Below, in pieces: positions 46,973 to 62,669 of a stretch of DNA of 64,000 bases. The notes under the pieces are model-generated. The model ran no database searches. It was not told the DNA's origin and saw nothing but the letters and a program-made list of their open reading frames with translations. The stretch covers positions 224,001-288,000 of the forward strand of contig CAVYES010000007.1 of NCBI GenBank assembly GCA_963767735.1, written 5' to 3'. This DNA is from Candidatus Bathyarchaeota archaeon (GTDB lineage: Archaea > Thermoproteota > Bathyarchaeia > Bathyarchaeales > Bathycorpusculaceae). The translations under genes were made by a program, and so were the position numbers. Each line of letters opens with the position of its first letter. Position 1 is the stretch's first letter.

Positions 46973-48169
46973 CTATTCGACGCTGCAGACCTGGGCTGGT
47001 GAAGCAAGCTTCTTTAAGTCATCGGCGCCGTCAGCGTATCCTGAAGCAACCAATACGTCACCTGCTTGGATTTTTGAGTCTGCTCGAGGACGCAAACATC
47101 CCTCGCCTCTTTTAATCACTAAAACCCACATGCCGGTTTCTTCATGCACGCGAGCTTCTTTAAGAGTCTTGTTTACAAGCGGAGAATCCGCAGTAACACA
47201 AGCTTGGGCAACTGTTTCCTCTGCTTCTTTAATTGTTAGCTTCAAAATTGGGTGCGGTTCAATACCTCTTAGAACAACCTCAGCTATATCCGCAGCTGCA
47301 TCAGCGATTTTTTCTGTTGCTACACCTAACCGAATTAAACCTAGAAACCCGGAGGCTTCTTCTTTTTTGAAATCGCTGGTTAAAGCAAGCAATTCGAAAT
47401 CGGTGTGCATTTGGTCCATGCGTTCTTCAAGGTGCTCGACTTCTTCGGCTAGTTCCTTACTGTTTAACAGAAGCGAAGAATAAGCCAAATCCAACATTAA
47501 CTCGGATGTGTCCTTGAGCTCTACGAACCTTGAAACAATTTCCTCGAATTTTGCGCGTTCTTCAACGCCTAATTTTGCAAGTTCGCCTTCAGCTAAATCT
47601 TTAAATTTTTCAATGCCTAACGATGTACCACGAGTAATTAGGATGTCGCCTTGCAAAACTCTTTCTGTGCCCTCTGGGTCGAGTATCCAATCTTTATTTC
47701 GTCGGATAGCAATAATATCAACGCCCATTTTCGCAGCCAAATCCAATTCATCTATACTTTTGTTGAGAATCGTTGAATTGGCTTTTACGGTCACTTTCAT
47801 TAAGCGTTCTTCTACTTTTTCAAAGATTTCGCCAACTATAGGGTGAATGCCAATGTTACGGGTAACTATCGCTGCTATGTCGGCAGCAGCATCTGAAATT
47901 TTATCGGTGGAAGAAGCTACTTTGGAGATACCAACCAATGCCTCTGCATCTTTAGGATCTCTTGAAACAACCATTAATTCCATATTTAAAAGGTACGCCA
48001 ACGTATCTACTCGGCTTTCAAGCGCAAGAACGTCTTCAGCAAGGTCTTTGTCATTATACAAAGCTGCAGAATAGGCTAAGTCAATCATTAGTTCAGATAG
48101 ATTTTTCATTTCGAGTAAAAGCTCTCTGACGGGGATAGGTTTGTATTCTATCCTTTCAAACTTAGGCAT
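46973..48169 (-). CDS. Tandem PhoU-like + TrkA-C (RCK_C) protein
   Basis: Two repeats of MKNLSELMIDLAYSA / LKDTSELMLDLAYSS, each followed by TrkA-C (GVDIIAIRR..GDILI; GMWVLVIKR..GDVLV). Confidence 0.85.
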   Translation of the reverse strand: MPKFERIEYKPIPVRELLLEMKNLSELMIDLAYSAALYNDKDLAEDVLALESRVDTLAYLLNMELMVVSRDPKDAEALVGISKVASSTDKISDAAADIAAIVTRNIGIHPIVGEIFEKVEERLMKVTVKANSTILNKSIDELDLAAKMGVDIIAIRRNKDWILDPEGTERVLQGDILITRGTSLGIEKFKDLAEGELAKLGVEERAKFEEIVSRFVELKDTSELMLDLAYSSLLLNSKELAEEVEHLEERMDQMHTDFELLALTSDFKKEEASGFLGLIRLGVATEKIADAAADIAEVVLRGIEPHPILKLTIKEAEETVAQACVTADSPLVNKTLKEARVHEETGMWVLVIKRGEGCLRPRADSKIQAGDVLVASGYADGADDLKKLASPAQVCSVE

Positions 48170-48228
48170 ATACTATAGGTCGCTCCATAATAAAATATGG
48201 CTGTGAATTATTTAAAAATACTCTCAAG

Positions 48229-49455
48229 CTACCTGATTAGAAGTAAAGCTAACAGTAAAGCTGATGAGGTCACTATGGTTGCTAATGACGTTTCAAGTGG
48301 GATAACAAAATTATCAGGATTCAAGCCTCTTTTGAATGTTAATATCGCGATACCGAAAGATAAAAGCACTATACCTGTGACGCCAATTATGTTAGATAAC
48401 CAAATTATTATCATAAAATTAAGCACGCTTGATAGTGGAAATACACGGTTAATTGCTAGAGATATTAGGGCTAAAACGGTGGATATTAAAAGTGAGGCTG
48501 TCCATGCGCTGGTTATGTTTTTGGTATGGTTTTTTATCGAAGAGAAAGAGGGCTTGAGTAAACCTAAAGCGAGCTTAGTATTAGCGGTGGAGCCTACAAC
48601 TGAGCCGACATTACTTACCATGTTAATTAAGGCTGGATAAATAGTGTAAATTTCTTTCTGGTTTTTTGCAGCATTACTTATTCCTTTAAAAACGGTTCCC
48701 GTTAGGGTTAGAATTACGGATACAAACATTAGCATAATGAGGGATTCCTTTATGGTTCTCAGGAATTCGGGTTCCTGCTTGTCTTGCAATACCAGATATA
48801 GAACGAGAAACACGTGTGTAAGACCGATAGCTAGAATCACTAATTTGCCGAAAAATGGCAAAAAGAAAAACAAGTTTAACACCCCGATATAACAGAGGGT
48901 TATGAAAATGATGGCTGCCGTAGAAATTATTGGATAAACTACGATGTCAGGGTCTAATCCTCGTTTGAAAGAAACGAAAGCAACCTTGATCGTTATTAAA
49001 GAAAAAAGCAGACCTATCGCTAATGTTGAAACCAAGACTGCTACTATAGCTGGGAAATCAGCCACAGTAATGCCCAAGAGCAAGTAACCGAAAAGAAAAG
49101 AAATTAAGCTAACCGTAAGGCTTGTTACTAAAGTTAATACAATTACGGCATGAATTAGTTTATGGAAGCTATTTGTATTTCCAGAAAAACGAGGGTGAAT
49201 CGTGCCAAGACGCAAGGCCGTGCTTAAGCGGCCACTAAGTAAACCGTTAATTATTCTTAAACTTATCAGCGCTGGATAAAGAGCAAAGGCCCAAGGTGAG
49301 AGCCTGAAAACATTAAGTTGGTAAGCAATAAGAAAACCGGCAATTAATCCAGCTATGTCAAATGAGTAAGCTAACGCTGTCTCCTTGAACATTCCCCAGA
49401 AATTTCCATAAAGGCTGTCATTTGAAATTCTGGTTGACCTCCTAAAGTTCGTCAA
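48229..49455 (-). CDS. mgtE: MgtE-family divalent cation transporter (duplicated membrane domain, archaeal type)
   Basis: About 12 TM helices; SGRLSTALRLG, GLDPDIVVYPI, GLNPDNFVIPLETS. Confidence 0.82.
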   Translation of the reverse strand: MTNFRRSTRISNDSLYGNFWGMFKETALAYSFDIAGLIAGFLIAYQLNVFRLSPWAFALYPALISLRIINGLLSGRLSTALRLGTIHPRFSGNTNSFHKLIHAVIVLTLVTSLTVSLISFLFGYLLLGITVADFPAIVAVLVSTLAIGLLFSLITIKVAFVSFKRGLDPDIVVYPIISTAAIIFITLCYIGVLNLFFFLPFFGKLVILAIGLTHVFLVLYLVLQDKQEPEFLRTIKESLIMLMFVSVILTLTGTVFKGISNAAKNQKEIYTIYPALINMVSNVGSVVGSTANTKLALGLLKPSFSSIKNHTKNITSAWTASLLISTVLALISLAINRVFPLSSVLNFMIIIWLSNIIGVTGIVLLSFGIAILTFKRGLNPDNFVIPLETSLATIVTSSALLLALLLIR

Positions 49456-49591
49456 AAAGGAGTTTTTTTATGGGTAATCTGAGAAAATTATTGGTTAAGG
49501 TAAGATTGGAATTAAAGTGTCTTTTAATTGTATTCAAAGCTGCTGCTATGTGAGCATATTTAGGATTTGCTGATTTGTGGACTCCCGTCAT
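49442..49591 (-). CDS. Short upstream ORF (49 aa) overlapping the mgtE start
   Basis: MTGVHKSANPKYAHIAAALNTIKRHFNSNLTLTNNFLRLPIKKLLFDEL*; GTGATGG upstream and TATTTAAG at 49698-49705. Confidence 0.35.
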   Translation of the reverse strand: MTGVHKSANPKYAHIAAALNTIKRHFNSNLTLTNNFLRLPIKKLLFDEL

Positions 49592-49878
49592 GTTTAATCG
49601 CCATCACGATTTTGTTTGGCGGTCCACGGTCCAAGTAGCGATGGGGCTGCCAAAGCCGTTTTAACTGCCAATTAACGTTTTTGGAAGGGAGCTATGTCTT
49701 AAATAGTTTCTGTCGCAGCCAATTTTCGGCTAAAAGGCTTTTCTTAGTAGAGCTGATCCGAAAACACCGATGCTTTATTTTATTTGACATTTCTTCTCGA
49801 CTTTGCCCTCGTATTGCAAGGAACTGTTTTTAAATATGATGTTTCTGGTAATGATAGAACGATTTCACTCTTGGCCGA

Positions 49879-52800
49879 GTGAGCACTGGCGAGAGACCCG
49901 TGGCAAATGGAGTTCAACCCAATCCAGAAATATTCACCGTAAAAGAAAACGTGCCATTAGCGCAGCCTCCCGTAACCTCAGAAGAAGTTTTGACTCTGCC
50001 AACAGACGAGTTATTATCTCGACTTGGAACTTCATCTCAGGGTTTAAGCTCCCAAGAAGCAGAACAGAATCTAAATATTTATGGCACGAACGAATTAGCA
50101 CGAAAGAGGAAACGTTCGGGTATCGTCAGTTTTCTACTTCATTTCAAAAGCCCCCTGATTATCATACTTTTGTTTGCGGCTGGGCTTGCTGGCGCAACTG
50201 GCGATGTTGCAGACTTTAGTATAATAGTTGTAATCGTGTTAATCAGCGTCATTATTGATCATTATCAAGAATCCAAAGCAGAAAACGCTGCTGAACTTCT
50301 CAAAGAAAAAGTAAGTACGACAGCCACCGTGCTTCGTGATAAAATTAAGACAGAGCTTAAACTTTCTCAAATAGTTCCCGGCGACATAGTTTACCTCTCA
50401 GCTGGAGATATCGTACCCGCAGATTCGAGAATAATTACCGGTAAAGATCTTTTCATAAATCAAAGCAGTTTAACTGGTGAATCGTTCCCTGTTGAAAAGA
50501 CAGCCAACAAATTAGAGTCAATAAACATAGCGTATAGTTCGATTACTGAATGGAACAATTATCTGTTCATGGGCACTTCGGTTGTAAGTGGCAGCGCAAC
50601 GGCAGTCGTTGCGAGAACTGGTGGCTCCACAGAATACGGAAAAATCGCTAAGAAACTCGTTGCAAAGCCCCCAGAAACAGAATTTGAGCGCGGCGTAAAA
50701 GGGTTCAGTTACCTTATCATGCAGGTCACGTTCGTATTGATTATCTTTGTTTTTATTGTGCTTGCTCTGTTTCACAGAGGGATAGTTGAATCGCTTCTTT
50801 TCTCAGCTGCCTTGGCAGTAGGGTTGACCCCAGAACTTCTACCGATGATCATCACGATGAACCTTTCTAAGGGCGCTGTAAACATGTCAAAAAAAGGCGT
50901 AATAGTGAAACATCTGCCGTCCATAGAAAATTTCGGCAGCATGAACGTTTTATGCACGGATAAAACAGGAACTCTGACGGAAAACCGCATATCGCTTGTG
51001 CTGCATGTTGATTCAGAAGGCAATGATGATGATAAGGTGTTTTTGTATTCTTATTTGAACAGCTATTATGAAACTGGACTGAAAAGCCCTCTTGACGAGG
51101 CAATCCTATCGCATAAAGAGATTAAAGTTGAGGGTTTCCAAAAAATCGATGAAGTCCCATTTGATTTTGTCCGAAGACGCGTTTCTGTTGTGGTTGAACA
51201 GGAAAGAGAAAGATTCTTCATAGCAAAGGGTGCTCCAGAAGATATACTGAAAATCTCAAATTACTGCGAAATAGGCGGTATCATTCAGGATATTAGTGAA
51301 GAACTGCGGAAAAAGATTGAGCAAAAATACTTTGACCTGAGCGCTGAAGGCTTAAGAGCCTTGGGTGTAGCATACAAAAAACTCAGGGAAGACAAAGCCG
51401 TCTACTCGGTTAACGATGAAAACGACATGGTGTTTCTGGGCTTCGTCGCTTTCCTTGACCCTCCAAAAGAAACAACAAAAGAGTCACTTCGACTACTTGC
51501 CAAAGAGGGAATAGAACTAAAGATCTTAACTGGCGACAACGAGCTAGTTACCAGAAAAGTTTGTGAACAACTTGGTTTCGAGATTAAAGGGGTTGTTCTC
51601 GGAAATGACATGATCCAAATGCACGATGACGCCTTAGCTCGAGTTGTGGAAGAAGCCAACGTATTCGCACGCGTAACTCCAGTACAAAAAGACCGCATAA
51701 TTAATTTGTTGAAAAGCAATGGTCATGTTGTTGGCTTCATGGGCGACGGCATTAACGATGCTCCTTCCCTGAAAACATCGGATGTGGGCGTTTCCGTTAA
51801 CAACGCTGTGGATGTCGCGAAAGAATCAGCAGATATTATACTTCTAGAAAACGACTTGACAGTACTAGCTGAAGGTGTTATCGAGGGAAGAAAAACCTTC
51901 GGCAACACCATGAAATACGTAATGATGGGAATTAGCTCAAACTTCGGCAACATGTTCAGCGTTGCGGGTGCAGCATTATTTTTGCCCTTCCTGCCAATGT
52001 TACCCATACAAATTTTGTTAAACAATCTACTGTATACGCTCTCGCAAACAACAATAGCTACAGATAATGTTGATGAAGAATACATTGAGCGCCCCAAAAG
52101 ATGGGATATTTCCTTCATCAGAAACTTCATGGTGGTGGAGGGTCCATTGAGCTCGATTTTTGATTATGCCACGTTCTTTACGATGGCTTTTGTGTTTGGT
52201 GTTCCTATCACTGCCGCTGCTGGCGCGGGTCTTTCGCCAAAAACGCTCGCAAACCTGCAATCGCAATTCCAAACTGCATGGTTCGTAGAATCACTTTGTA
52301 CGCAAACTTTGGTTGTGTTCGTTATTCGTACGAGGCAGTCGCCGTTCTGGAAAAGCAAACCCGGGAAGTATCTGATGATAAGCTGCTTCTCAGTGGTTGC
52401 TTCAGCCTTCATAATACCCTACACGCCGTTGGGTCCAGTGTTCAAATTCGCGCCGCCTCCACCGTTATTCTACGCCTTCCTAGCGCTCTTTATCGTTGTC
52501 TACCTGTTCCTGGCCGAATTTGTTAAGAGATGGTTCTACAGACGGCATGCTTTCAGAATTGAGCAGGCGTTGGTTCCGAAAAGAAAAACCCTCTATCTGA
52601 GCAAGAGTGCACAGTTAGTGCAGGATGTAGCTGCCGTGGTATGTTTGCGTGAAGAGAACGAGATTTCTTTTGATTCTCTAATTGAAGACTTATCAAGAAG
52701 TCTAAGCTACCCCATTGATTCAGACCGTGTATATCAGAGCCTGCAGTATCTTCGTCGTGGAGGATTAATCGATGTTGATTGGCACAGTCGAAGAATCAAA

Positions 52801-52962
52801 AGGTCAGCGTCTATCAAAGAGTACATCACAAAACGCGTCGCAACCAGCCCAACATGGACGTTGGCATATGATGATTGGCTCCGCATATACAGGGCAATTC
52901 AAGACAAATACGGCAAAACCAACCCTGACTTCCAAGAACTTTTCTTGCCAAGGCAACGTTAG
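49879..52962 (+). CDS. mgtA: Mg2+-importing P-type ATPase (P3B) with ~120-aa C-terminal extension
   Basis: Same P3B motifs as 38410-41007 (PELLPM, DKTGTLT, GDGINDAP, SSNFGN), plus a tail ISFDSLIEDLSRS...VYQSLQYLRRGGLIDVDW. Confidence 0.92.
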   Translation: MSTGERPVANGVQPNPEIFTVKENVPLAQPPVTSEEVLTLPTDELLSRLGTSSQGLSSQEAEQNLNIYGTNELARKRKRSGIVSFLLHFKSPLIIILLFAAGLAGATGDVADFSIIVVIVLISVIIDHYQESKAENAAELLKEKVSTTATVLRDKIKTELKLSQIVPGDIVYLSAGDIVPADSRIITGKDLFINQSSLTGESFPVEKTANKLESINIAYSSITEWNNYLFMGTSVVSGSATAVVARTGGSTEYGKIAKKLVAKPPETEFERGVKGFSYLIMQVTFVLIIFVFIVLALFHRGIVESLLFSAALAVGLTPELLPMIITMNLSKGAVNMSKKGVIVKHLPSIENFGSMNVLCTDKTGTLTENRISLVLHVDSEGNDDDKVFLYSYLNSYYETGLKSPLDEAILSHKEIKVEGFQKIDEVPFDFVRRRVSVVVEQERERFFIAKGAPEDILKISNYCEIGGIIQDISEELRKKIEQKYFDLSAEGLRALGVAYKKLREDKAVYSVNDENDMVFLGFVAFLDPPKETTKESLRLLAKEGIELKILTGDNELVTRKVCEQLGFEIKGVVLGNDMIQMHDDALARVVEEANVFARVTPVQKDRIINLLKSNGHVVGFMGDGINDAPSLKTSDVGVSVNNAVDVAKESADIILLENDLTVLAEGVIEGRKTFGNTMKYVMMGISSNFGNMFSVAGAALFLPFLPMLPIQILLNNLLYTLSQTTIATDNVDEEYIERPKRWDISFIRNFMVVEGPLSSIFDYATFFTMAFVFGVPITAAAGAGLSPKTLANLQSQFQTAWFVESLCTQTLVVFVIRTRQSPFWKSKPGKYLMISCFSVVASAFIIPYTPLGPVFKFAPPPPLFYAFLALFIVVYLFLAEFVKRWFYRRHAFRIEQALVPKRKTLYLSKSAQLVQDVAAVVCLREENEISFDSLIEDLSRSLSYPIDSDRVYQSLQYLRRGGLIDVDWHSRRIKRSASIKEYITKRVATSPTWTLAYDDWLRIYRAIQDKYGKTNPDFQELFLPRQR

Positions 52963-53156
52963 AATCTGGTTTGGCGCTATCATACTCGCACGGCGCTATC
53001 AAGAGAAATCGCCTTGCAACGTGCGCTGACAAGATTTGCTGATGAAATATTCTGGGTTAACTGCGTTGTTGTAGAACTGCAACATTAGACTTTTCATGAA
53101 GCATAGAAACAGAGATAAAAATTACAAAAGAAAATTGTTTGTTCGGCGAGAGGTGT

Positions 53157-53285
53157 TTATTTCTTGCCTTTCGTGTGTTTTGCTGGAAGCGAAACCTGCT
53201 TTTTCTCTTTTCGTTTCATATCCTTTTCGCGTTGAAGTTTCTTATGTTGTTCAAGTCCTTCAGCTTTCTTTGCTTTCTTAGACAA
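53157..53285 (-). CDS. Small lysine-rich protein (42 aa)
   Basis: MSKKAKKAEGLEQHKKLQREKDMKRKEKKQVSLPAKHTKGKK; TTG start with AAGGTTGA RBS-like site; U-rich tract downstream. Confidence 0.6.
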   Translation of the reverse strand: MSKKAKKAEGLEQHKKLQREKDMKRKEKKQVSLPAKHTKGKK

Positions 53286-53523
53286 ATTTATCAACCTTTA
53301 CAAGCAGTATAATAAAACCTACTCTTAGACCTTACCCTCCCTTATATGCCCAAACAAAATGGCGAAAAGGAAAATAACGAGCTATACCAGAATTAACGCG
53401 AACCTGTACGGCTCAATGCTCACTTTTCTTTCTGACTCAAAAATTAATGCGCCCCTCAACGTGAATTCGGGTATTTTAAAGCATCAAACAATAAATAAAA
53501 GTTAATCAAATAGTAATTTTCAC

Positions 53524-54036
53524 GTGAAAACTATGCGGTTTGAATGCGGTGGCTGCAAGAAATCCTTTTCTGGTTCAGGCTTAGTTGTGTCTTCAACAAA
53601 TGGGGAAAAGAAGACTTACTGTGCGGATTGTTTTTGGGTGCTAAAGAAGGAATATGAAAAGAAGAAAACTTGTGAGGACTGCGGCTCCTTTGATGAGGAT
53701 TCATGCAAGAAGACTGGCAGAGCCTTGGTGCCTGTGAAGGCGGGGTTTAACACGTATTTTGTTCAGGCAGAAACCTGCAAAGACTTCTCCACCGAGAAAA
53801 AAGCAAATCCTGACAAAAAGAAAGATAAAGAATTAACCCCGGTGCAAAAAGAATCAGATGCCCTCATCAAGAACCTATCCAAGAAAGGACAAACCCTAAC
53901 CTACCACTGCTGCCACTGTGGAGCCCCCCTGAAAATCGGCGCAAAAGCAACCGAAATCCAAAAAACCTGCCCCAGATGCAAAGGCGACCTCGAAATTATT
54001 AACCTCTCCAAATTCATCAAACAACACCAATCATAA
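53524..54036 (+). CDS. Multi-Zn-finger hypothetical protein
   Basis: CGGC...CADC, CEDC...C...C and CCHC...CPRC motifs. Confidence 0.75.
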   Translation: MKTMRFECGGCKKSFSGSGLVVSSTNGEKKTYCADCFWVLKKEYEKKKTCEDCGSFDEDSCKKTGRALVPVKAGFNTYFVQAETCKDFSTEKKANPDKKKDKELTPVQKESDALIKNLSKKGQTLTYHCCHCGAPLKIGAKATEIQKTCPRCKGDLEIINLSKFIKQHQS

Positions 54037-54132
54037 AGACAAACCTAAAAACAGAAGTTCAAAGCTAACATATCAAAAGGAACAAAGCTACCCGTTTCAA
54101 CGAAAAAAATTTTAGCTTGCTAACTCTTCATA

Positions 54133-54687
54133 GTGATTGTGCCTGCCATGACCAAATGGTTTTCGAGATGGCTTTCGAGACGCTTCGTTCTTTCGGTAGT
54201 TATTATTTTCGTTTTGATATATGCGACAATGTATTTCTCTTCTGTTTTAGCGTATAATAACTCTTTTTCTCCTGCTGGAGTAGCCGCAGCCAACCAAACT
54301 TCACAAAATATTCAGCAGATACGGCAAACCGCCACTGGGTTAAGCATATTTGTTCATAATTTTGAAACAAGCATTTGGGTGATCATTCCTATTGGTTTTT
54401 TAGGTTTTTTTGTAGTGATATGGAACACTGGGCAAACCATTGGCAGGTTGGCTTATTCGGCGGGCTACAGTCCACTTGCATATTTAGGGAGCATCAGCGT
54501 TCCTGTGGGTCTTATTGAAATGTCGGCGTACTCGATTTTGGCTGCTGAAAGCCTCTACCTGACTTACCTGTGGTTTAGGGGCAGAAGCGTAAAAGAACGT
54601 TTACTGCATGACTCATGGAAAAGCGTTATTTTATATGTCGCAGTACTGTTGGTAGCGGCATATTTGGAAGCAGCATTGATTGCCTGA
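54133..54687 (+). CDS. SpoIIM/DUF95-like membrane protein
   Basis: IFVHN, NTG..IG, P.G.IE..A, C-terminal LLVAAYLEA. Confidence 0.72.
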   Translation: MIVPAMTKWFSRWLSRRFVLSVVIIFVLIYATMYFSSVLAYNNSFSPAGVAAANQTSQNIQQIRQTATGLSIFVHNFETSIWVIIPIGFLGFFVVIWNTGQTIGRLAYSAGYSPLAYLGSISVPVGLIEMSAYSILAAESLYLTYLWFRGRSVKERLLHDSWKSVILYVAVLLVAAYLEAALIA

Positions 54688-54855
54688 AGAGACCAGTCGA
54701 CGCCTAAACTCCCAGATTCACCGTTTTTCCACACCGCTTAAATTCAAAATTTATCAAGCGGCACATCTTCTGCTAAAAAGTCAAGTCCCGTAGAATTTAC
54801 ACCCATATAAGGGGCTTTTGCTTTGTATTGAAATATAAACGGAGCAAGAAACAAG

Positions 54856-56265
54856 ATGACGAATGTGCGCAAGGAAACAGACAGTCTCGGCGAAGTAGAT
54901 GTTCCTGCTGACAAACTCTGGGGTGCCCAAACCCAACGTTCACTGGAGCACTTCAGCATTGGCACGGACCTGGTTCCCCGTGAAATGATTTCTGCGTATG
55001 CAATATTGAAGAAAGCTGCTGCCCACGTGAACCATGCTGACGGACGGCTTGACGAGCAGCGTTGCAAGCTAATTGTTCAGGTCTGTGACGAGATTCTCGC
55101 TGGCAAGCATCATGACATGTTTCCGTTGCACGTTTGGATGACGGGAAGCGGCACACAGTTCAATATGAATGTGAACGAGGTAATCTCTAACCGCTGCTGC
55201 CAACTCGCCGGCACACCACTTGGAAGTAAGACTCCTGTTCACCCCAATGATCACGTCAATATGGCGCAGTCGTCAAACGACACATTTCCATCTGCAATGT
55301 GCATTGCGGCAGCCGTAAATGTAAAGGAGAAACTAATTCCCGCCGTGAAGGCGCTGCAGGACTCGATTTCGGCGAAAGCTGAGCAGTGGAAAGACATCAT
55401 CAAGATTGGCCGCACCCACATGCAGGATGCAACACCAATCACGCTCGGACAGGAATGGTCTGGGTATGCGGGCATGCTTGAGGACAATCTCAAAAGAATT
55501 GAAGATGCCCTGGACGGAGTCTACCGCCTCGCACTCGGCGGTACAGCAGTGGGCACAGGCATCAATTCGGAGCCCGGCTTCGGTGAAGCTGCTGCCAAAG
55601 AAATCGCCAAGCTCACTAGTCTGCCGTTTGTAAGCGCACCAAACAAATTCACGGTGCAGGGGGCGCATGATGATCTGGTACAGCTTTCCGGCACGCTACG
55701 TACGGTGGCTGTGTCTCTCTACAAGATAGCCAACGACATTAGGCTAATGTCATGTGGTCCCCGGGCAGGCTTTGCTGAATTATTGATCCCTGAAAACGAG
55801 CCAGGCTCATCAATTATGCCGGGCAAGGTAAACCCAACCCAGGCTGAGGCGCTGACCATGGTAGCCGTTCAGGTGATGGCGAACGATGTCGCTGTAGGCT
55901 TCGGAGGCGCTGGTGGTTATCTCGAAATGAACGTCTACAAGCCACTAATTATTTTCAATGTTAGCAACTCAATCACGATAATTGCCGACGGGTGCACGAA
56001 CTTCCGCAAGTTCCTCATCGAGGGAACACAGCCGAACCTGAAGAAGATTAAGGAGTACGTAGGCCGCTCATTGATGCTCGTGACAGCACTGGCTCCAGTG
56101 ATAGGCTATGATAAGGCATCAAAGATCGCACACTACGCAATGGACAATGACCTCACTTTGAAAGAGGCTGCACTAAAACTGGGCTTGGTAACAGAAGAAG
56201 AGTATGATCGCATCGTTGATCCGGCGAAAATGGTTAGACCATACATCGCAACAGACAAGCAATAA
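54856..56265 (+). CDS. fumC: Class II fumarate hydratase
   Basis: [42 protein letters not shown], signature [11 protein letters not shown]. Confidence 0.95.
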
Positions 56266-56351
56266 CAAGCTAGAACAGTTCAAGCAAATCCTTTACTAAC
56301 ACTAAGTCAATAATTTCATAGAGGCACCAAATTTTTAGGAAAGGTAATTGA

Positions 56352-57995
56352 ATGGATAATACCGGTAAGCGTGGAATAGAGTTACTTCGGGACCCTTTCC
56401 TCAATAAGTCTACTGGGTTTAACGAAGTCGAGAAAGAGAAGTTAGGTTTGGTTGGTCTCGTCCCCGATGTCACAGAAAACGAGGAGCTGCAACTTCAACG
56501 CGTCATGATGCAACTTGGCCACAAGAACACTGACCTTGATCGTTATATCTACCTTGTGAATTTACTTGACCACAACGAAACGCTCTTCTACAGAACCATC
56601 ATGTCTGATCCGGCACGCTTTCTACCAATAGTGTACGACCCAACCATCGGCGAGGCATGCCTCAAATTCGGCCATATCTACCGCCAGCCTCGAGGCATGT
56701 ATCTCTCAATTAAGCGCCGCGGCAAAGTGAAGGAGATCCTGAAGAACTGGTCACAGAAAGATATTCGGTTCATCTGCGTTACTGACGGCGGGAGAATCCT
56801 CGGTCTTGGAGACCTTGGGGCAAACGGCGCAGGAATCCCCATCGGCAAACTTGAACTATACACCGCTTGCGCCGGTGTCCCTCCGCAGTACCTGCTGCCA
56901 ATGTTCCTTGACGCGGGCACCAACAATGAGCAGTACCTACACGACCCCCTCTATCTAGGGTTACGTGAAACGCGTCCACCGACCGTGGATCTTTTCTCGT
57001 TTGTCGATGAGTTTGTCGAGGCGGTACAGGAGGTGTTTCCGAAGTGCTGCATCCACTTTGAAGATTGGACGGGAGTAGATGCGATACATCTGCTTCAGCG
57101 CTACCGCGACAAATATTGCGTCTATAACGACGATGTTCAAGGCACGGCTGCGATTGTACTTGCAGGCATGATTAACGCAACCAGGCTCAAGGACACAAAA
57201 CTCAAAGACGAGAAATACCTGTTCCTCGGCGCGGGCTCCGCTGGTATCGGTCTCGCCAACCTGCTGTGTTCGGCGCTCGTTACCCAAGGCATGTCACTTA
57301 CGGAGGCTCAGTCCCGGGTGTACATGTTTGACATTAACGGTCTGTTGGAGACGTCTCGCAAAGACCTCGTTGACTTTCAGAAGCCATATGCTCATCAGCA
57401 CGCGCCAACCCGAGATTTCCTTGCTGCTCTAGAGAGCATAAAGCCAACCACGATCATCGGCACCAGTACTGTTGGAGGAGCCTTCACACAAAAAGTCGTT
57501 GAGAGCATCTCGAGTATCAACGAACGACCTGTGATTCTTGCGTTGTCGAACCCGACCGAGCGTGCTGAATGCACTCCTGAGCAAGCCTACACCTGGTCAA
57601 AGGGCAAGGCAATCTATGCTGCCGGCGTGCAGTTTGCCCCAGTCAGCTACAACGGTCAGACGTTTCTGCCAGGTCAGGCCAACAACTTCTACATTTTCCC
57701 AGCGGTCGGTATGGCAATCTTCGCGACTCAAGCGAGCAGGGTTTCGGATGAGATGTTTATTGAAGCTGGACAGGCGGTTGCCGATCAGGTGCAACCTGAG
57801 TTGCTCAAGCAGGGCCTTCTGTACCCGTTGCAAGCGAACATTTTGGAGACCGAAATCCAGACCGCCGCACGAGTAGCAAAGCTTGTCTTCGACTCCGATT
57901 TGGCTAGGGTCGCTCGACCCGCCGATATGGTGGCTTTCATCCGTCAGCACGTCTATAAGCCAGAATACTCAAACGAAGCCCAGTTCGTTAAGTGA
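56352..57995 (+). CDS. maeA: Large-subunit NAD(P)-dependent malic enzyme (MaeA/SfcA type)
   Basis: PIVYDPT.G.AC, VTDG.RILGLGDLG, DPLYLG, FED, NDDVQGT, GAGSAG, LSNPT..AEC, GQANN.YIFP. Confidence 0.92.
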   Translation: MDNTGKRGIELLRDPFLNKSTGFNEVEKEKLGLVGLVPDVTENEELQLQRVMMQLGHKNTDLDRYIYLVNLLDHNETLFYRTIMSDPARFLPIVYDPTIGEACLKFGHIYRQPRGMYLSIKRRGKVKEILKNWSQKDIRFICVTDGGRILGLGDLGANGAGIPIGKLELYTACAGVPPQYLLPMFLDAGTNNEQYLHDPLYLGLRETRPPTVDLFSFVDEFVEAVQEVFPKCCIHFEDWTGVDAIHLLQRYRDKYCVYNDDVQGTAAIVLAGMINATRLKDTKLKDEKYLFLGAGSAGIGLANLLCSALVTQGMSLTEAQSRVYMFDINGLLETSRKDLVDFQKPYAHQHAPTRDFLAALESIKPTTIIGTSTVGGAFTQKVVESISSINERPVILALSNPTERAECTPEQAYTWSKGKAIYAAGVQFAPVSYNGQTFLPGQANNFYIFPAVGMAIFATQASRVSDEMFIEAGQAVADQVQPELLKQGLLYPLQANILETEIQTAARVAKLVFDSDLARVARPADMVAFIRQHVYKPEYSNEAQFVK

Positions 57996-58415: not shown

Positions 58416-58907
58416 ATGTCTTCAACTTCAATTGGTGACCAAGAAATCGACGATCTTAGTCATAAGATCATGAATGAAATTGAAAACAAAAGCTCAAAAG
58501 AGCTTGCCGGATCCGACGAAATGATAAAGATTCTGCATTTGACAGATATGCCTACGGCGAAAACGTTGCTTCAGCACGCAGACGAAGCAGCTACTGATGC
58601 CGAACGGATGGTGGGGAAAAAAGCTCTTGTAGAAGCGCTTCTGCAGTCTGTGTGGCATCAGAGATTGTATTTCATTGTTCGCTCAGTCATCATGGGCATA
58701 CTTGGGGCTTTGGTCACGCTTGTTTACTTTCTGATTTTCCACTCCTTAGACCTCATCTTGGAAATTCCCTTAGGCATATTTTCTTTCATATTTACATTGA
58801 CCGTCTCGCGATTGTTTGATGTGCAGATTGTCAAAGCAACGAGAATCATAGTTGAATTTTTAGTGAGCCATAAGCGTTTGATGGATTTTGTTCTAAGCCA
58901 CTTCTAA
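58416..58907 (+). CDS. Hypothetical membrane protein (2 C-terminal TM helices)
   Basis: Helical soluble N-half followed by two hydrophobic segments. Confidence 0.7.
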   Translation: MSSTSIGDQEIDDLSHKIMNEIENKSSKELAGSDEMIKILHLTDMPTAKTLLQHADEAATDAERMVGKKALVEALLQSVWHQRLYFIVRSVIMGILGALVTLVYFLIFHSLDLILEIPLGIFSFIFTLTVSRLFDVQIVKATRIIVEFLVSHKRLMDFVLSHF

Positions 58908-59066: not shown

Positions 59067-60377
59067 ATGAATGTTGGGGTATTAAATTTGGTTTCTGAAA
59101 AAGTAACGCATTTTCATGGATGCCAGATAGCAACCACTAATTCCGTGAAACAGCACAAACTGAGGAAGCTCATAGCGTGGCTATCAGAAAAAGAGGGACG
59201 GGGAATGGAGTTCATCTCGTTATACATACGCCCGCGGACATCAATAGATGATATAGTCGCAAACCTCAAGTGCGAGTCTGATTCCGCCATAAAACCCGAA
59301 AGCGGCAGAGATGTTAAGAATCGCCTTCAAGACGCCGTCAAGAAAGTAATCCAGCGTCTAAAGTTGCAGAAAGAAATTCCAGAGAATGGGCTCGCGATAT
59401 TTGCTGGAACCTTCGCGGCGAACGATGCGGAAAAAGAATTAGTGAACATCGAAGAAATTGTTCCTCCAGAGCCAATTACCGCTTATCTTTACGAGGTTAA
59501 CGACCATTTCCGGTTAGAGCCGCTGAGGGAAATGCTTAGAAACCCAAAAGTTGTTGGATTCGTAGCCTTGGATTCAAAAGAGGCGAGCTTCGGGATACTT
59601 AATGGTGAACGCCTCGAATTACTCGAAAATATCACGTCGGGAATTATGGGAAAGACCGTAAAGGGCGGTCAGAGCCAAAGGAGGTACGAAAGAGAACGCG
59701 ACATGGAAATCGGATACTTTTTCCACAGAGTGGCGGAACATGCAACAAAAGCATTTCTCGAGAACCACAAAATAACGGCTCTGATAGTTGGAGGACCAGG
59801 CCAAACAAAAGAGAACTTCTTGAAGGGAGATTACCTTAATTACGAACTAAAGAACGCGCTTCTCAACACAGTTGATACACAATCCGCCGACAAAGAAGCG
59901 GTGAAAGAAATGCTAGACAAATCATCTGAGACACTGAAGAATATGTGCGCGCCAGAGGAGAAGATGATCGTGCAGCGCCTTCTGGCAGCAGTAGGCAAAC
60001 AAGACGGTTTGGCAATTTACGGACTAGATCCAGTGCTAAACGCGCTCAAGAATGGCGAAGTGGAAGTTGCTCTAGTGACAGATAATACAGACATGATTGA
60101 AATTGTCGCGATGTGCAAAATATGCGAACTGCCAATAACCAAGATAGTAAATAAGGCTATGAAGACTCAGGCAGTACAAGAATTGATATCGAGCCCATGC
60201 GAGAAGTGCAACGCGGCAGAATATGAGGTGGAGGAGAAGGACATAATAGATGTCCTAGAGGACGCGGCTTCACAGACAAACGCAAAGGTTGAGGTCATAT
60301 CAACAGAGTCGGAAGAAAAAGCTAAACTCAAAGCTTTAGGAGGCTTCGCCGCCCTCTTAAGATACAACCATGGGTAA
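59067..60377 (+). CDS. Peptide chain release factor aRF1 paralog with divergent N-domain
   Basis: ISLYI, PENGLAIF, PPEPI, KGGQSQRRYER, GGPG.TK..F, CxxC..CxxC minidomain, STESEE..L..LGGFAALLRY; probable TTG start 59088. Confidence 0.9.
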   Translation: MNVGVLNLVSEKVTHFHGCQIATTNSVKQHKLRKLIAWLSEKEGRGMEFISLYIRPRTSIDDIVANLKCESDSAIKPESGRDVKNRLQDAVKKVIQRLKLQKEIPENGLAIFAGTFAANDAEKELVNIEEIVPPEPITAYLYEVNDHFRLEPLREMLRNPKVVGFVALDSKEASFGILNGERLELLENITSGIMGKTVKGGQSQRRYERERDMEIGYFFHRVAEHATKAFLENHKITALIVGGPGQTKENFLKGDYLNYELKNALLNTVDTQSADKEAVKEMLDKSSETLKNMCAPEEKMIVQRLLAAVGKQDGLAIYGLDPVLNALKNGEVEVALVTDNTDMIEIVAMCKICELPITKIVNKAMKTQAVQELISSPCEKCNAAEYEVEEKDIIDVLEDAASQTNAKVEVISTESEEKAKLKALGGFAALLRYNHG

Positions 60378-60481: not shown

Positions 60482-60631
60482 CTAAGGTAATGATTGATTT
60501 TTTGGTTGCTCTTGTTTAATTGGTTCTTGGGCTGCGGTTTTTTGCTTTGTGATTTTTTCGAGGGTTAGTGACCAGTTGGTGAAGCAGTCCCACAGTAGGC
60601 TTGAGTCGGTTTGGTCTTGGTTGTTACTCAT
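60482..60631 (-). CDS. Small ORF (49 aa) translationally coupled to the dienelactone hydrolase
   Basis: ATGA overlap with the DLH stop; MSNNQDQTDSSLLWDCFTNWSLTLEKITKQKTAAQEPIKQEQPKNQSLP. Confidence 0.5.
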   Translation of the reverse strand: MSNNQDQTDSSLLWDCFTNWSLTLEKITKQKTAAQEPIKQEQPKNQSLP

Positions 60632-61437
60632 TGAGTCGCCTTTAGGTATTTGTTGAAGAATGCTAAAGTCATGGTCCAGGCGTCTTCGGCTGCGGGTTTG
60701 TTGTATGAGGGTCTGTTCTCGTTGAAGAAGGCGTGTTGTGTTCCTTGGTAGATTTTCATTTGAAAGGTTTTTTTGTATTTAATCATGCTTTCTAATAGGG
60801 CAGTGACGCCGCTGGTTATTCTTTGGTCCTCCCCAGCGTAGATTCCAAATACAGGTCCTTCAATTTTGGCAACTGCTTCGAGTGGTTTCGGGTTTGCGCC
60901 ATAAAAGGGAACCACAGCTTTAAATGGGTACATAGTTGCAAGCTGGTAAGATAATCCGCCGCCGAGGCAGAAACCCGTGATTCCGAGACTTTCAGGTTCC
61001 ACAGTTTCTATAGTTTTGGCGTAGTTTATGGTGCAGAGTAGGTCTTGAGCCATTATTTTTTCGGCGTTTTCTCTGCCCGTAAAGAAAAAGTTTACTACTT
61101 TCTGGTCGTTTTCAGGCAAGGTCTTCATTAAGCTCTCGATTGCGTTTGGGTCGCCTCGTTTTTCTGGGGGAATCTGCCAAATACTCATCATGGCTTTCTC
61201 GATTGCTTGCTCAGTCATTAGGTCTTTCTGTCGGCTGAAGAGATGCGGGGCTATACTCACAAAACCCTGTTGTGCATATCTGTTTGCGACACCCTTAATC
61301 TGCTCGTTAAGGCCCCATGCTTCGTGGACAACGATGACGGCGGGCAGCCGACCGCCAGTTTCTGGAGCAGCAACATAAGCTAACATGCCAGAGCCATCAG
61401 AACACTCAACCGTTACAGTTCGACTTGAGAACTTCAT
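60628..61437 (-). CDS. Dienelactone hydrolase family protein
   Basis: VVHEAWGLN, nucleophile GFCLGG, FYG, GED, HAFFN. Confidence 0.92.
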   Translation of the reverse strand: MKFSSRTVTVECSDGSGMLAYVAAPETGGRLPAVIVVHEAWGLNEQIKGVANRYAQQGFVSIAPHLFSRQKDLMTEQAIEKAMMSIWQIPPEKRGDPNAIESLMKTLPENDQKVVNFFFTGRENAEKIMAQDLLCTINYAKTIETVEPESLGITGFCLGGGLSYQLATMYPFKAVVPFYGANPKPLEAVAKIEGPVFGIYAGEDQRITSGVTALLESMIKYKKTFQMKIYQGTQHAFFNENRPSYNKPAAEDAWTMTLAFFNKYLKATQ

Positions 61438-62216: not shown

Positions 62217-62669
62217 TTGAGAAAGCTTGCGGCGTTGGTTCTGATCATATTTATTGTTGCGGGCAGCATAGGCGCCGTTCTGATTTTAAGCAAAAAACCT
62301 CCTTCTTTGCCTCCAATGGCTCATTCGGTTCAGATAGTGAATGGGACAGCCACGGTTAACGCCAGTGCATATATCGATTACGTCTTCTCTATTCCTCCGG
62401 GTTCCTCAAGTATTCATGTTTCAGGAAACTTTACGGTACAAGCCAGCCGCGGTAGCGGCATCATTGTTTACATTTTTGACAGCACCAACTTTGACGATTA
62501 TGAAACAGGAGCTTACTTCGGCGCACTCTACCAAAGCTCACAAACTACAACAGCCCTAATCAGCTCCAACCTTGACTCAAACGGAACCTACTACATCGTC
62601 CTCGACAACACGTTATCTACGGCTGCTCAGACCGTGAATATACAAGCCAATGCCACCTACTACACGTAA
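62217..62669 (+). CDS. Membrane-anchored beta-sandwich (GOLD/emp24-like) secreted protein
   Basis: N-terminal TM, VSGNFTV, I.VYIFD..NF, GTYYIVLDN. Confidence 0.7.
   Translation: MRKLAALVLIIFIVAGSIGAVLILSKKPPSLPPMAHSVQIVNGTATVNASAYIDYVFSIPPGSSSIHVSGNFTVQASRGSGIIVYIFDSTNFDDYETGAYFGALYQSSQTTTALISSNLDSNGTYYIVLDNTLSTAAQTVNIQANATYYT

Follow-up and report, generated by a model that had tools for sequence, protein, structure and literature searches.

The 64,000-nucleotide stretch of Candidatus Bathyarchaeota archaeon analysed here (contig CAVYES010000007.1, positions 224,001 to 288,000; hereafter the window) encodes, at its positions 59067 to 60377, a divergent paralog of the archaeal class I release factor aRF1. 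This gene coexists with a normal aRF1 in the same genome and belongs to a family under purifying selection, in which the motifs used for stop-codon decoding have been lost and selection is concentrated on the loop GGxSQRRYERER and on a C-terminal motif. Judging from its sequence, we tentatively favour a role for this paralog as an accessory, codon-independent factor of the ribosomal aminoacyl (A) site, which would hydrolyse peptidyl-tRNA on stalled ribosomes.

The first-pass annotation, made from the DNA letters alone, had proposed that the window gene is not the housekeeping aRF1, and a genome search bore this out. The 3.04 Mb source genome (10 contigs, 95% complete) carries a canonical aRF1 on another contig (G000:C5:330107-331333; 519.5 bits to TIGR03676), with SHTE, TASNIKS, YRCDSRF, and GGQ motifs, to which the paralog is ~38% identical. 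The paralog itself is an intact frame of 436 amino acids (aa) running from an ATG to a TAA, and its product is an aRF1-type protein. The NCBIfam model TIGR03676 (aRF1_eRF1) matched residues 29-434 at 362.6 bits (E 2.3e-108, cut-off 234.7), covering positions 2-402 of the 403 in the profile, and the Pfam domains eRF1_1, eRF1_2, and eRF1_3 were recovered at 35.9, 111.8, and 67.3 bits, respectively, with the canonical aRF1 of the same genome reaching 83 bits for eRF1_1. Halobacterium aRF1 (4af1) was the closest solved relative (E 6.8e-54), and also the top structural match of an AlphaFold2 model built from 94 aligned sequences (mean predicted local distance difference test score, pLDDT, 83.9; template modelling, TM, scores 0.69/0.73 over 423 columns). 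Structures of eRF1 came next, and those of Balon and Pelota ranked lower (TM 0.36-0.47 for Balon). As modelled, the fold of the window protein is aRF1-like. The frame, the TIGR03676 and Pfam matches, and a CxxC...CxxC zinc ribbon confirm the earlier description of an intact, full-length class I release factor with middle (M) and C domains and a Zn minidomain (Table 1). Across 94 paralog and canonical rows, ribbon cysteines C350 and C378 never varied, and conservation of C353 and C381 was at least 90%. The C-terminal motif has been described as conserved in aRF1 and Dom34 (PMC2613156).

Several features set the paralogs apart from canonical sequences. An N-terminal extension, mainly a gap in canonical aRF1s, was kept in 18 of 18 paralogs, with its cysteine C19 present in 75 of 75, and was modelled as a strand (residues 12-16) followed by a helix (residues 18-21) at pLDDT 55-78. 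Since most orthologs begin near residue 8-10, the real start of the window gene may be a TTG at codon 8. C19, C294, and K418 are new paralog-specific invariants, residue 418 being a glycine in 19 of 19 canonical sequences, and altogether 95 columns were invariant among 18 paralog orthologs.

Residue-by-residue alignments confirmed that the three decoding motifs have all been lost, with GRGMEF, SDSAIKP, and YEVNDHF in their places, and ortholog alignments bore out the expectation that these N-domain motifs vary inside the clade. Among 75 paralogs, the GTx threonine position was occupied by K (25), M (21), R (12), T (8), L (6), or other residues (3), as opposed to T in 18 and S in 1 of 19 canonical sequences. 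NIK was found in 0 of 18 paralog orthologs, in which the length of the former NIKS loop differs by up to 8 residues. The cysteine position of YxCxxxF held V in 17 and L in 1 of these orthologs, compared to C in 30 of 30 aligned canonical relatives, and the paralogs display a new consensus at this site (x-V-[DN]-[DN]-H-F-x-L-E-P-L). Both NIKS and YxCxxxF have been described as universal in the a/eRF1 sequences sampled by Atkinson et al. 2008, except in ciliates and for a YxT variant (PMC2613156). With the GTx threonine, NIKS, and the YxCxxxF cysteine all lost and the former NIKS loop drifting freely, the paralog can probably no longer read stop codons, and codon-specific recognition of any kind appears very unlikely. 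The housekeeping aRF1 has also changed in this genus, since its GTx loop reads EG[SN]HTEL in 16 of 16 genus sequences versus GRGTEL in 14 of 14 from the other families of the order; the paralogs retain a GRG-like form of this loop.

The catalytic loop was strongly conserved across the family. In the window copy, it reads GKTVKGGQSQRRYER, with GGQ at residues 200-202. Residues G200, G201, S203, Q204, R205, and R206 were invariant in 18 of 18 paralogs, in a loop devoid of insertions or deletions, and all 75 aligned paralogs carried GG[QSAE]SQ, GGxSQRR, and Q204, the invariant stretch extending beyond the loop tip through RRYERER. Position 202 was occupied by S in 46, Q in 28, and A in 1 of the 75. 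A pattern scan of species-representative genomes yielded 166 related stretches, with ortholog counts based on 80 retrieved loci. In these, the residue after GG was S (52), Q (26), A (1), or E (1), with rarer states possibly under-counted as one of the two retrieval patterns admitted only Q or S at position 202. The metagenomic representative P0001 also has E after GG. The first-pass annotation had stated that GGQ is kept, which holds for the window copy but not for the clade, where GGQ is the minority state. Likewise, the expectation that the clade would conserve GGQ fails if taken literally: around two-thirds of the orthologs have S, A and E each occur once, and the constrained element is instead GGxSQ. 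A Q-to-S change at codon 202 (59670-59672) takes two substitutions (CAR to TCR), the serine codon being TCR in most cases. The A (GCG) and E states could represent Q/S intermediates, and recombination between copies in two-copy genomes provides another possible origin of Q/S switching.

Estimates of selection show that the paralog is both constrained and faster-evolving than its canonical counterpart. The Nei-Gojobori ratio of non-synonymous to synonymous substitution rates (dN/dS) was 0.18-0.24 in the 14 closest paralog pairs and 0.026-0.055 in the canonical copies of the same genomes, so that the paralog evolves ~4-5 times faster by this measure, and its protein distance was 2.6 times that of the canonical copy (median, 105 same-genome pairs). 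With every domain below 0.35, and hence well below 1, these ratios answer in the negative the earlier question of whether this is a decaying copy with dN/dS near 1. Regional omega, pooled over 11 close pairs that are non-independent, was lowest in the GG loop (residues 188-212, 0.08), helix alpha-1 (0.08), and the C terminus (residues 393-433, 0.11), and highest in the former NIKS loop (residues 69-86, 0.35).

We favour a codon-independent hydrolase because the strongest selection acts on the loop predicted to reach the peptidyl-transferase centre. Under this model, an aRF1 offshoot that keeps the three-domain, tRNA-like body would enter the A site, as expected given that this body is that of aRF1, and would be delivered there by aEF1-alpha, like aRF1 and Pelota. 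Such delivery is plausible because the contacts of aRF1 with aEF1-alpha involve the M and C domains and spare the N domain (PMC3467058), and these contact domains are the best preserved in the paralog. The N domain, devoid of decoding motifs, would not read stop codons, and the GG loop would reach the peptidyl-transferase centre and promote hydrolysis on stalled ribosomes or on ribosomes with an empty or abnormal A site. The paralog would then represent a rescue-type release factor built from aRF1, acting like ArfB/ICT1 or Vms1-like factors. Paralogy, motif loss, the pattern of constraint, and the distribution are direct observations; A-site binding, aEF1-alpha delivery, hydrolysis, and the substrate are all inferred here. 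Most substitutions of the GGQ glutamine reportedly preserve in vitro release activity, as Shaw and Green in 2007 and Seit-Nebi in 2001 are said to have found. Catalysis has been assigned to the backbone amide of this glutamine and not to its side chain (PMC6742477, PMC3467058), so that a serine at this position need not abolish hydrolysis. In addition, a conserved glutamine, a fixed loop length, and conserved arginines are given by Burroughs and Aravind 2019 as marks of active peptidyl hydrolases, with loops drifting in the non-catalytic relatives Dom34 and most baeRF-1, and GGxSQ is reported there in aVLRF-1 and acVLRF-1 (PMC6514570).

Several observations nevertheless weigh against a hydrolytic role. 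The glutamine of GGQ, a hallmark of the family, is replaced in 54 of the 80 orthologous loci, and the state of codon 202 flips at least 6 times on a FastTree phylogeny of 75 paralogs, with 3 of these flips forced by well-supported branches. This turnover may just as well indicate that selection acts on something other than catalysis. GGxSQ is also not a specific signature, since Q at +2 is found in some canonical aRF1s as well (2 of 19 aligned sequences and 8 NIKS-bearing representatives). Similarly, the resemblance to VLRF-1 is convergent and does not reflect real kinship, as the Pfam acVLRF1 model fits the paralogs (46.2 bits for the window protein, 40-46 across paralogs) no better than it fits canonical aRF1 (40.7). 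Finally, the paralog gene is dispensable, because three copies are broken elsewhere: a third copy in one genome (G009:C280) with an in-frame TAG and a frameshift, one in G199 with a TAA, and one in G403 with a TGA and a TAA.

The main rival reading is a non-catalytic A-site factor, which would not hydrolyse peptidyl-tRNA but would prime splitting by ABCE1 like Pelota, or park idle ribosomes like Balon. We consider this unlikely, yet worth serious attention. The catalytic glutamine is dispensable in the clade (S, A, or E versus Q in the 80 loci), Pelota and Balon are precedents of aeRF1-fold proteins without NIKS and GGQ which bind the A site irrespective of the codon (PMC10901736, PMC6514570), the structural model also matches both, although more weakly, and a patchy accessory distribution is typical of stress factors. 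On the other hand, the loop of non-catalytic relatives is poorly conserved and variable in length (PMC6514570), whereas here omega is 0.08 and GG, Q204, and the arginines are invariant. Carrier genomes also already have Pelota, and the NCBIfam models for Balon-type and Rv2629-type proteins remained far below cut-off (NF052289, 37.6 versus 320 bits; NF052288, 25.9 versus 480 bits). A further reading is a regulatory competitor, a protein binding aEF1-alpha and/or the A site and modulating termination or read-through against canonical aRF1, or alternatively a protein with an off-ribosome role. For a mere competitor, an invariant GG loop would be needless. Retention of the M and C domains, which make the aEF1-alpha contacts in aRF1 (PMC3467058), the paralog-specific invariants, and the dispensability of the gene would all suit such a competitor, but nothing specific points to it and no linked partner gene was found among 19 loci, making it improbable.

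The first-pass annotation had also raised altered codon specificity; the paralog would then read a subset of stops, or a sense codon or context. The full aRF1 architecture and the GGQ of the window copy would fit this possibility, for which the NIKS variants of ciliate eRF1, known to shift specificity (PMC2613156), provide a precedent. We now regard it as very improbable, because the former NIKS loop, with its many insertions and deletions, is hypervariable even between close orthologs: neither its sequence nor its length is constant at 52-84% identity, and no fixed codon-reading surface can be reconciled with this. The GTx position, too, may hold K, M, R, T, or L. The genome also encodes a canonical, omnipotent-type aRF1 and uses all three stops. 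Frames of at least 200 aa in the window end in TAA (15), TGA (10), or TAG (7), frames of at least 300 aa in the genome (n=1031) in TAA (550), TGA (257), or TAG (224), and searches of the genome with PylS, PylB, and PylD profiles gave sub-threshold matches only. Pyrrolysine use or a code change was rejected on these grounds, in line with the initial statement that no genome-wide code change is indicated. Lastly, a decaying duplicate without function is hardly credible. The ~2.6-fold faster protein evolution (105 genome pairs), the absence from 19 of 41 genus genomes, and the three broken copies described above would be expected of such a duplicate, but dN/dS is ~0.2 in every domain, the frame is open in 80 of 80 loci, and the 95 invariant columns are retained.

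Archaea rescue stalled ribosomes with Pelota and ABCE1, a process in which the nascent chain is not cut from its tRNA. Hydrolytic, codon-independent rescue is carried out by ArfB/ICT1 in bacteria and mitochondria and by Vms1 in eukaryotes, and is only predicted, for aVLRF-1, in a subset of archaea. Compared to classical aRF1/eRF1 (aeRF-1; TIGR03676; PDB 4af1, 3agk, 1dt9), the paralog shares the three domains, Zn ribbon, GG loop, Arg-rich helix, and C-terminal GGxAAxLRY, but it lacks the decoding motifs, does not conserve the Q of GGQ, bears a new N-terminal extension, and is accessory instead of universal. The second aRF1 of Methanosarcina (aRF1-1/aRF1-2) is similarly an extra gene beside a housekeeping copy. 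It is ascribed to a lineage-specific duplication, with functions said to be uninvestigated, in a 2025 PNAS paper that puts the share of sampled archaeal genomes holding two aRF1 copies at 4.3% (n = 81) and finds a copy number rising with genome size, the same trend as in the Bathyarchaeia genus studied here; unlike for the Bathyarchaeia paralog, the passage of that paper on the Methanosarcina copies describes no loss of decoding motifs (PMC12626013). aVLRF-1 and acVLRF-1 share the GGxSQ loop with the paralog and are predicted to hydrolyse peptidyl-tRNA independently of the codon in rescue, but aVLRF-1 is described as lacking the C-terminal Pelota-type domain and having a coiled-coil N-terminal extension, and acVLRF-1 as lacking the codon-recognition domain (PMC6514570), whereas the paralog keeps all domains. 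Kinship with VLRF-1 was rejected given the acVLRF1 scores, the position of the paralogs among classical aRF1s in the tree, and the presence of all classical domains.

Among A-site factors that ignore the codon, Pelota/Dom34 belongs to the same aeRF1 superfamily and has M and C domains in common with the paralog, to which the match of the Pelota model TIGR00111 was limited (residues 158-341, 67.6 bits versus a cut-off of 177.65). Pelota differs in its N domain, which is Sm-like, and in lacking a GG(Q) loop, where the paralog has an eRF1_1 N domain and a strongly conserved GG loop. Balon/baeRF-1 is also an accessory gene with an aeRF1 architecture lacking NIKS (PMC10901736); however, Balon is bacterial, lacks the GGQ loop, and has inserts of its own, while the paralog is archaeal and retains the GG loop. 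The likeness to ArfB/ICT1, which frees stalled ribosomes as a stand-alone GGQ hydrolase without codon dependence (PMC8012679), is one of function alone: the fold of ArfB/ICT1 (bacterial RF-PH domain and a C-terminal tail probing the mRNA channel) is unrelated and there is no homology. Literature searches on aRF1 paralogs, VLRF1/baeRF1, Methanosarcina aRF1, and Bathyarchaeia release factors returned no description of this clade, which could be listed in supplementary tables.

In its most far-reaching form, the hydrolase model would make this paralog the first archaeal stand-alone, codon-independent peptidyl-tRNA hydrolase derived from a complete classical aRF1, a counterpart of ArfB/ICT1 and Vms1 in which the glutamine would in effect lie two residues further on (GGQ to GGxSQ) and an N-terminal element with an invariant cysteine would stand in for the decoding surface, with a possible Nitrososphaerota-like donor and subsequent accessory spread among peat and soil Bathyarchaeia; we put this forward as a conjecture, possible but rather doubtful as a whole. 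The family is large, with at least 80 species-level genomes among the 166 matching stretches, and its natural GGQ, GGS, GGA, and GGE variants of an otherwise identical loop offer a ready system in which to test the weight of the GGQ side chain in an archaeo-eukaryotic factor. It would also lend itself to asking if a protein with an aRF1 body works when it reads no codon. For annotation, these paralogs call for caution: they exceed the threshold of the aRF-1 equivalog model and are being annotated as 'peptide chain release factor 1'.

The distribution of the paralog is that of an accessory gene of peat and soil Bathyarchaeia. In a first draw of genomes, a second copy of the paralog type (315-387 bits) was detected in 16 of 24 genomes of the genus and was absent from all 16 genomes of the other families of the order. 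A protein scan of 401 genomes of the class then returned matches either at least 55% or at most 42% identical, with a clean gap in between, and only the former were counted. By this tally, the paralog is present in 22 of 41 genus genomes, in three sister genera (4 of 12, 2 of 2, and 1 of 3 genomes, the last with an in-frame TAA), and, in one further family, in 2 genomes belonging to a single genus, of which one has an internal TGA and a TAA; no match at this level was found in any other order of the class. Open frames were found in 80 of 80 species-representative loci, several genomes having two copies, and related loci stem from Candidatus Bathyarchaeota/Bathyarchaeia metagenome-assembled genomes of peat, bog, palsa, and soil. 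Within the genus, mean genome size was ~2.6 Mb for carriers and ~2.2 Mb for non-carriers, in a hand tally of rounded sizes from genomes that are kin and thus non-independent.

Phylogenetic analysis is compatible with an origin either outside or within the order. In a quick maximum-likelihood IQ-TREE phylogeny of 73 sequences, the paralogs formed one clade (SH-aLRT 100) branching among classical aRF1s and joining the NIKS-bearing P0005 and P0030 (SH-aLRT 100), outside the clade of canonical aRF1s from their own order. This placement suggests that the paralog was acquired from outside, although a topology grouping the paralogs with the aRF1s of their own order withstood an approximately unbiased (AU) test (p 0.147, delta lnL 29.2). 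The closest NIKS-bearing sequences (38-47% identity) were P0005 and the intein-bearing P0002-P0004, P0007, P0010, and P0012; these intein-bearing relatives were left out of the tree, hmmalign having aligned just their C-terminal parts. Sequences clustered with P0012 bear the label Nitrososphaerota archaeon. P0002, P0003, P0004, P0007, P0010, and P0012 reach 666-1452 aa owing to one or two intein-like insertions placed exactly within functional motifs, where they part Y-x from C in YxCxxxF or follow GGQ immediately. Other odd aRF1-like proteins were found among public sequences (P0020, P0056, P0075, P0026, P0114, P0129, P0144), some of them NIKS-bearing with GGW or GGF for GGQ, and one, whose source name is aRF-1 of [Eubacterium] cellulosolvens, with GGE and no NIKS. 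A separate aRF1-like clade lacks NIKS and YxC and retains GGQ.

Pelota was missing from the source assembly, both by profile search and by tblastn with a same-genus Pelota. However, synteny with G003 (L156) and G018 (L155) breaks off at the edge of contig C1 (first ~400 bases), ~1.8 kb short of the Pelota genes of these two genomes, and Pelota was over cut-off in 35 of 41 relatives, paralog carriers included. We thus rejected a replacement of Pelota by the paralog, the absence being attributed to an assembly gap at the end of contig C1; since carriers have Pelota, the paralog adds to it instead. Many genus genomes also encode an ORF (open reading frame) of ~240-255 aa weakly similar to the Pelota M and C domains (E 1e-7 to 1e-11), 25-35 kb from the Pelota gene (e.g., G001:C4:276257-276937, G019:C75:21941-22609, and G003:C1:953135-953812). 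It was not seen in the source genome (G000), and could represent a third protein of the aeRF1 superfamily, in truncated form. No dedicated GTPase was found, the genome having a single EF-1-alpha-class gene with other matches at 71 bits or below. This sole EF-1-alpha gene (G000:C7:70680-71967; L157/L158), on the contig of the window but outside it, is interrupted by a +1 frameshift between ...GELKS and LEMHH.... In G018, G013, G003, and G014 the gene is uninterrupted, and in G004 it is split at another place. The frameshift is most likely an assembly indel and serves as a warning of frameshift errors in the source assembly.

Table 1 Features of the aRF1 paralog gene, in window coordinates.
Feature	Residues	Position	Strand	Basis or constraint
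Whole gene, divergent aRF1 paralog, 436 aa and TAA stop	1-436	59067..60377	+	ORF, TIGR03676, Pfam, AlphaFold2
N-terminal extension, paralog-specific, consensus xEKxTHFxxCQxATxNSV, C19 invariant	1-27	59067..59147	+	
N domain, eRF1_1 fold, all three decoding motifs lost	28-160	59148..59546	+	dN/dS 0.15-0.34
GRGMEF, GTx position (aRF1: G-x-G-T-x-L), T to M	44-49	59196..59213	+	Residue-level alignments
SDSAIKP, former TASNIKS loop, altered loop length	71-77	59277..59297	+	Residue-level alignments
YEVNDHF, former YxCxxxF, C to V, Y and F retained	142-148	59490..59510	+	Residue-level alignments
M domain, eRF1_2	161-294	59547..59948	+	Pfam 111.8 bits; dN/dS 0.08-0.28
GGQSQ, catalytic loop tip, family pattern GGxSQRR	200-204	59664..59678	+	Alignments
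C domain, eRF1_3 with inserted Zn ribbon	295-436	59949..60374	+	Pfam 67.3 bits; dN/dS 0.12-0.32
Zn ribbon CxxC...CxxC	C350, C353, C378, C381	60114..60209	+	Invariant in 18/18 paralogs
LGGFAALLRY, C-terminal aRF1/Pelota motif	424-433	60336..60365	+	omega 0.11 for region 393-433

The genomic neighbourhood of the paralog is not conserved, as no ORF family besides the paralog itself was found in more than 3 of 19 loci, barring antisense frames within the gene, leaving no conserved neighbour or operon partner at this level. Window ORFs 53524-54036, 58416-58907, and 62217-62669 had no Pfam match. In the window, the neighbours of the paralog are a fumarase, a malic enzyme, a 163-aa unannotated ORF, and a dienelactone hydrolase. 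More broadly, the regions 46973-57995 and 60628-61437 encode ordinary proteins: a PhoU/TrkA-C protein, an MgtE-type transporter, a P-type cation ATPase, a SpoIIM-like membrane protein, the fumarase (class II), the malic enzyme, and the dienelactone hydrolase.

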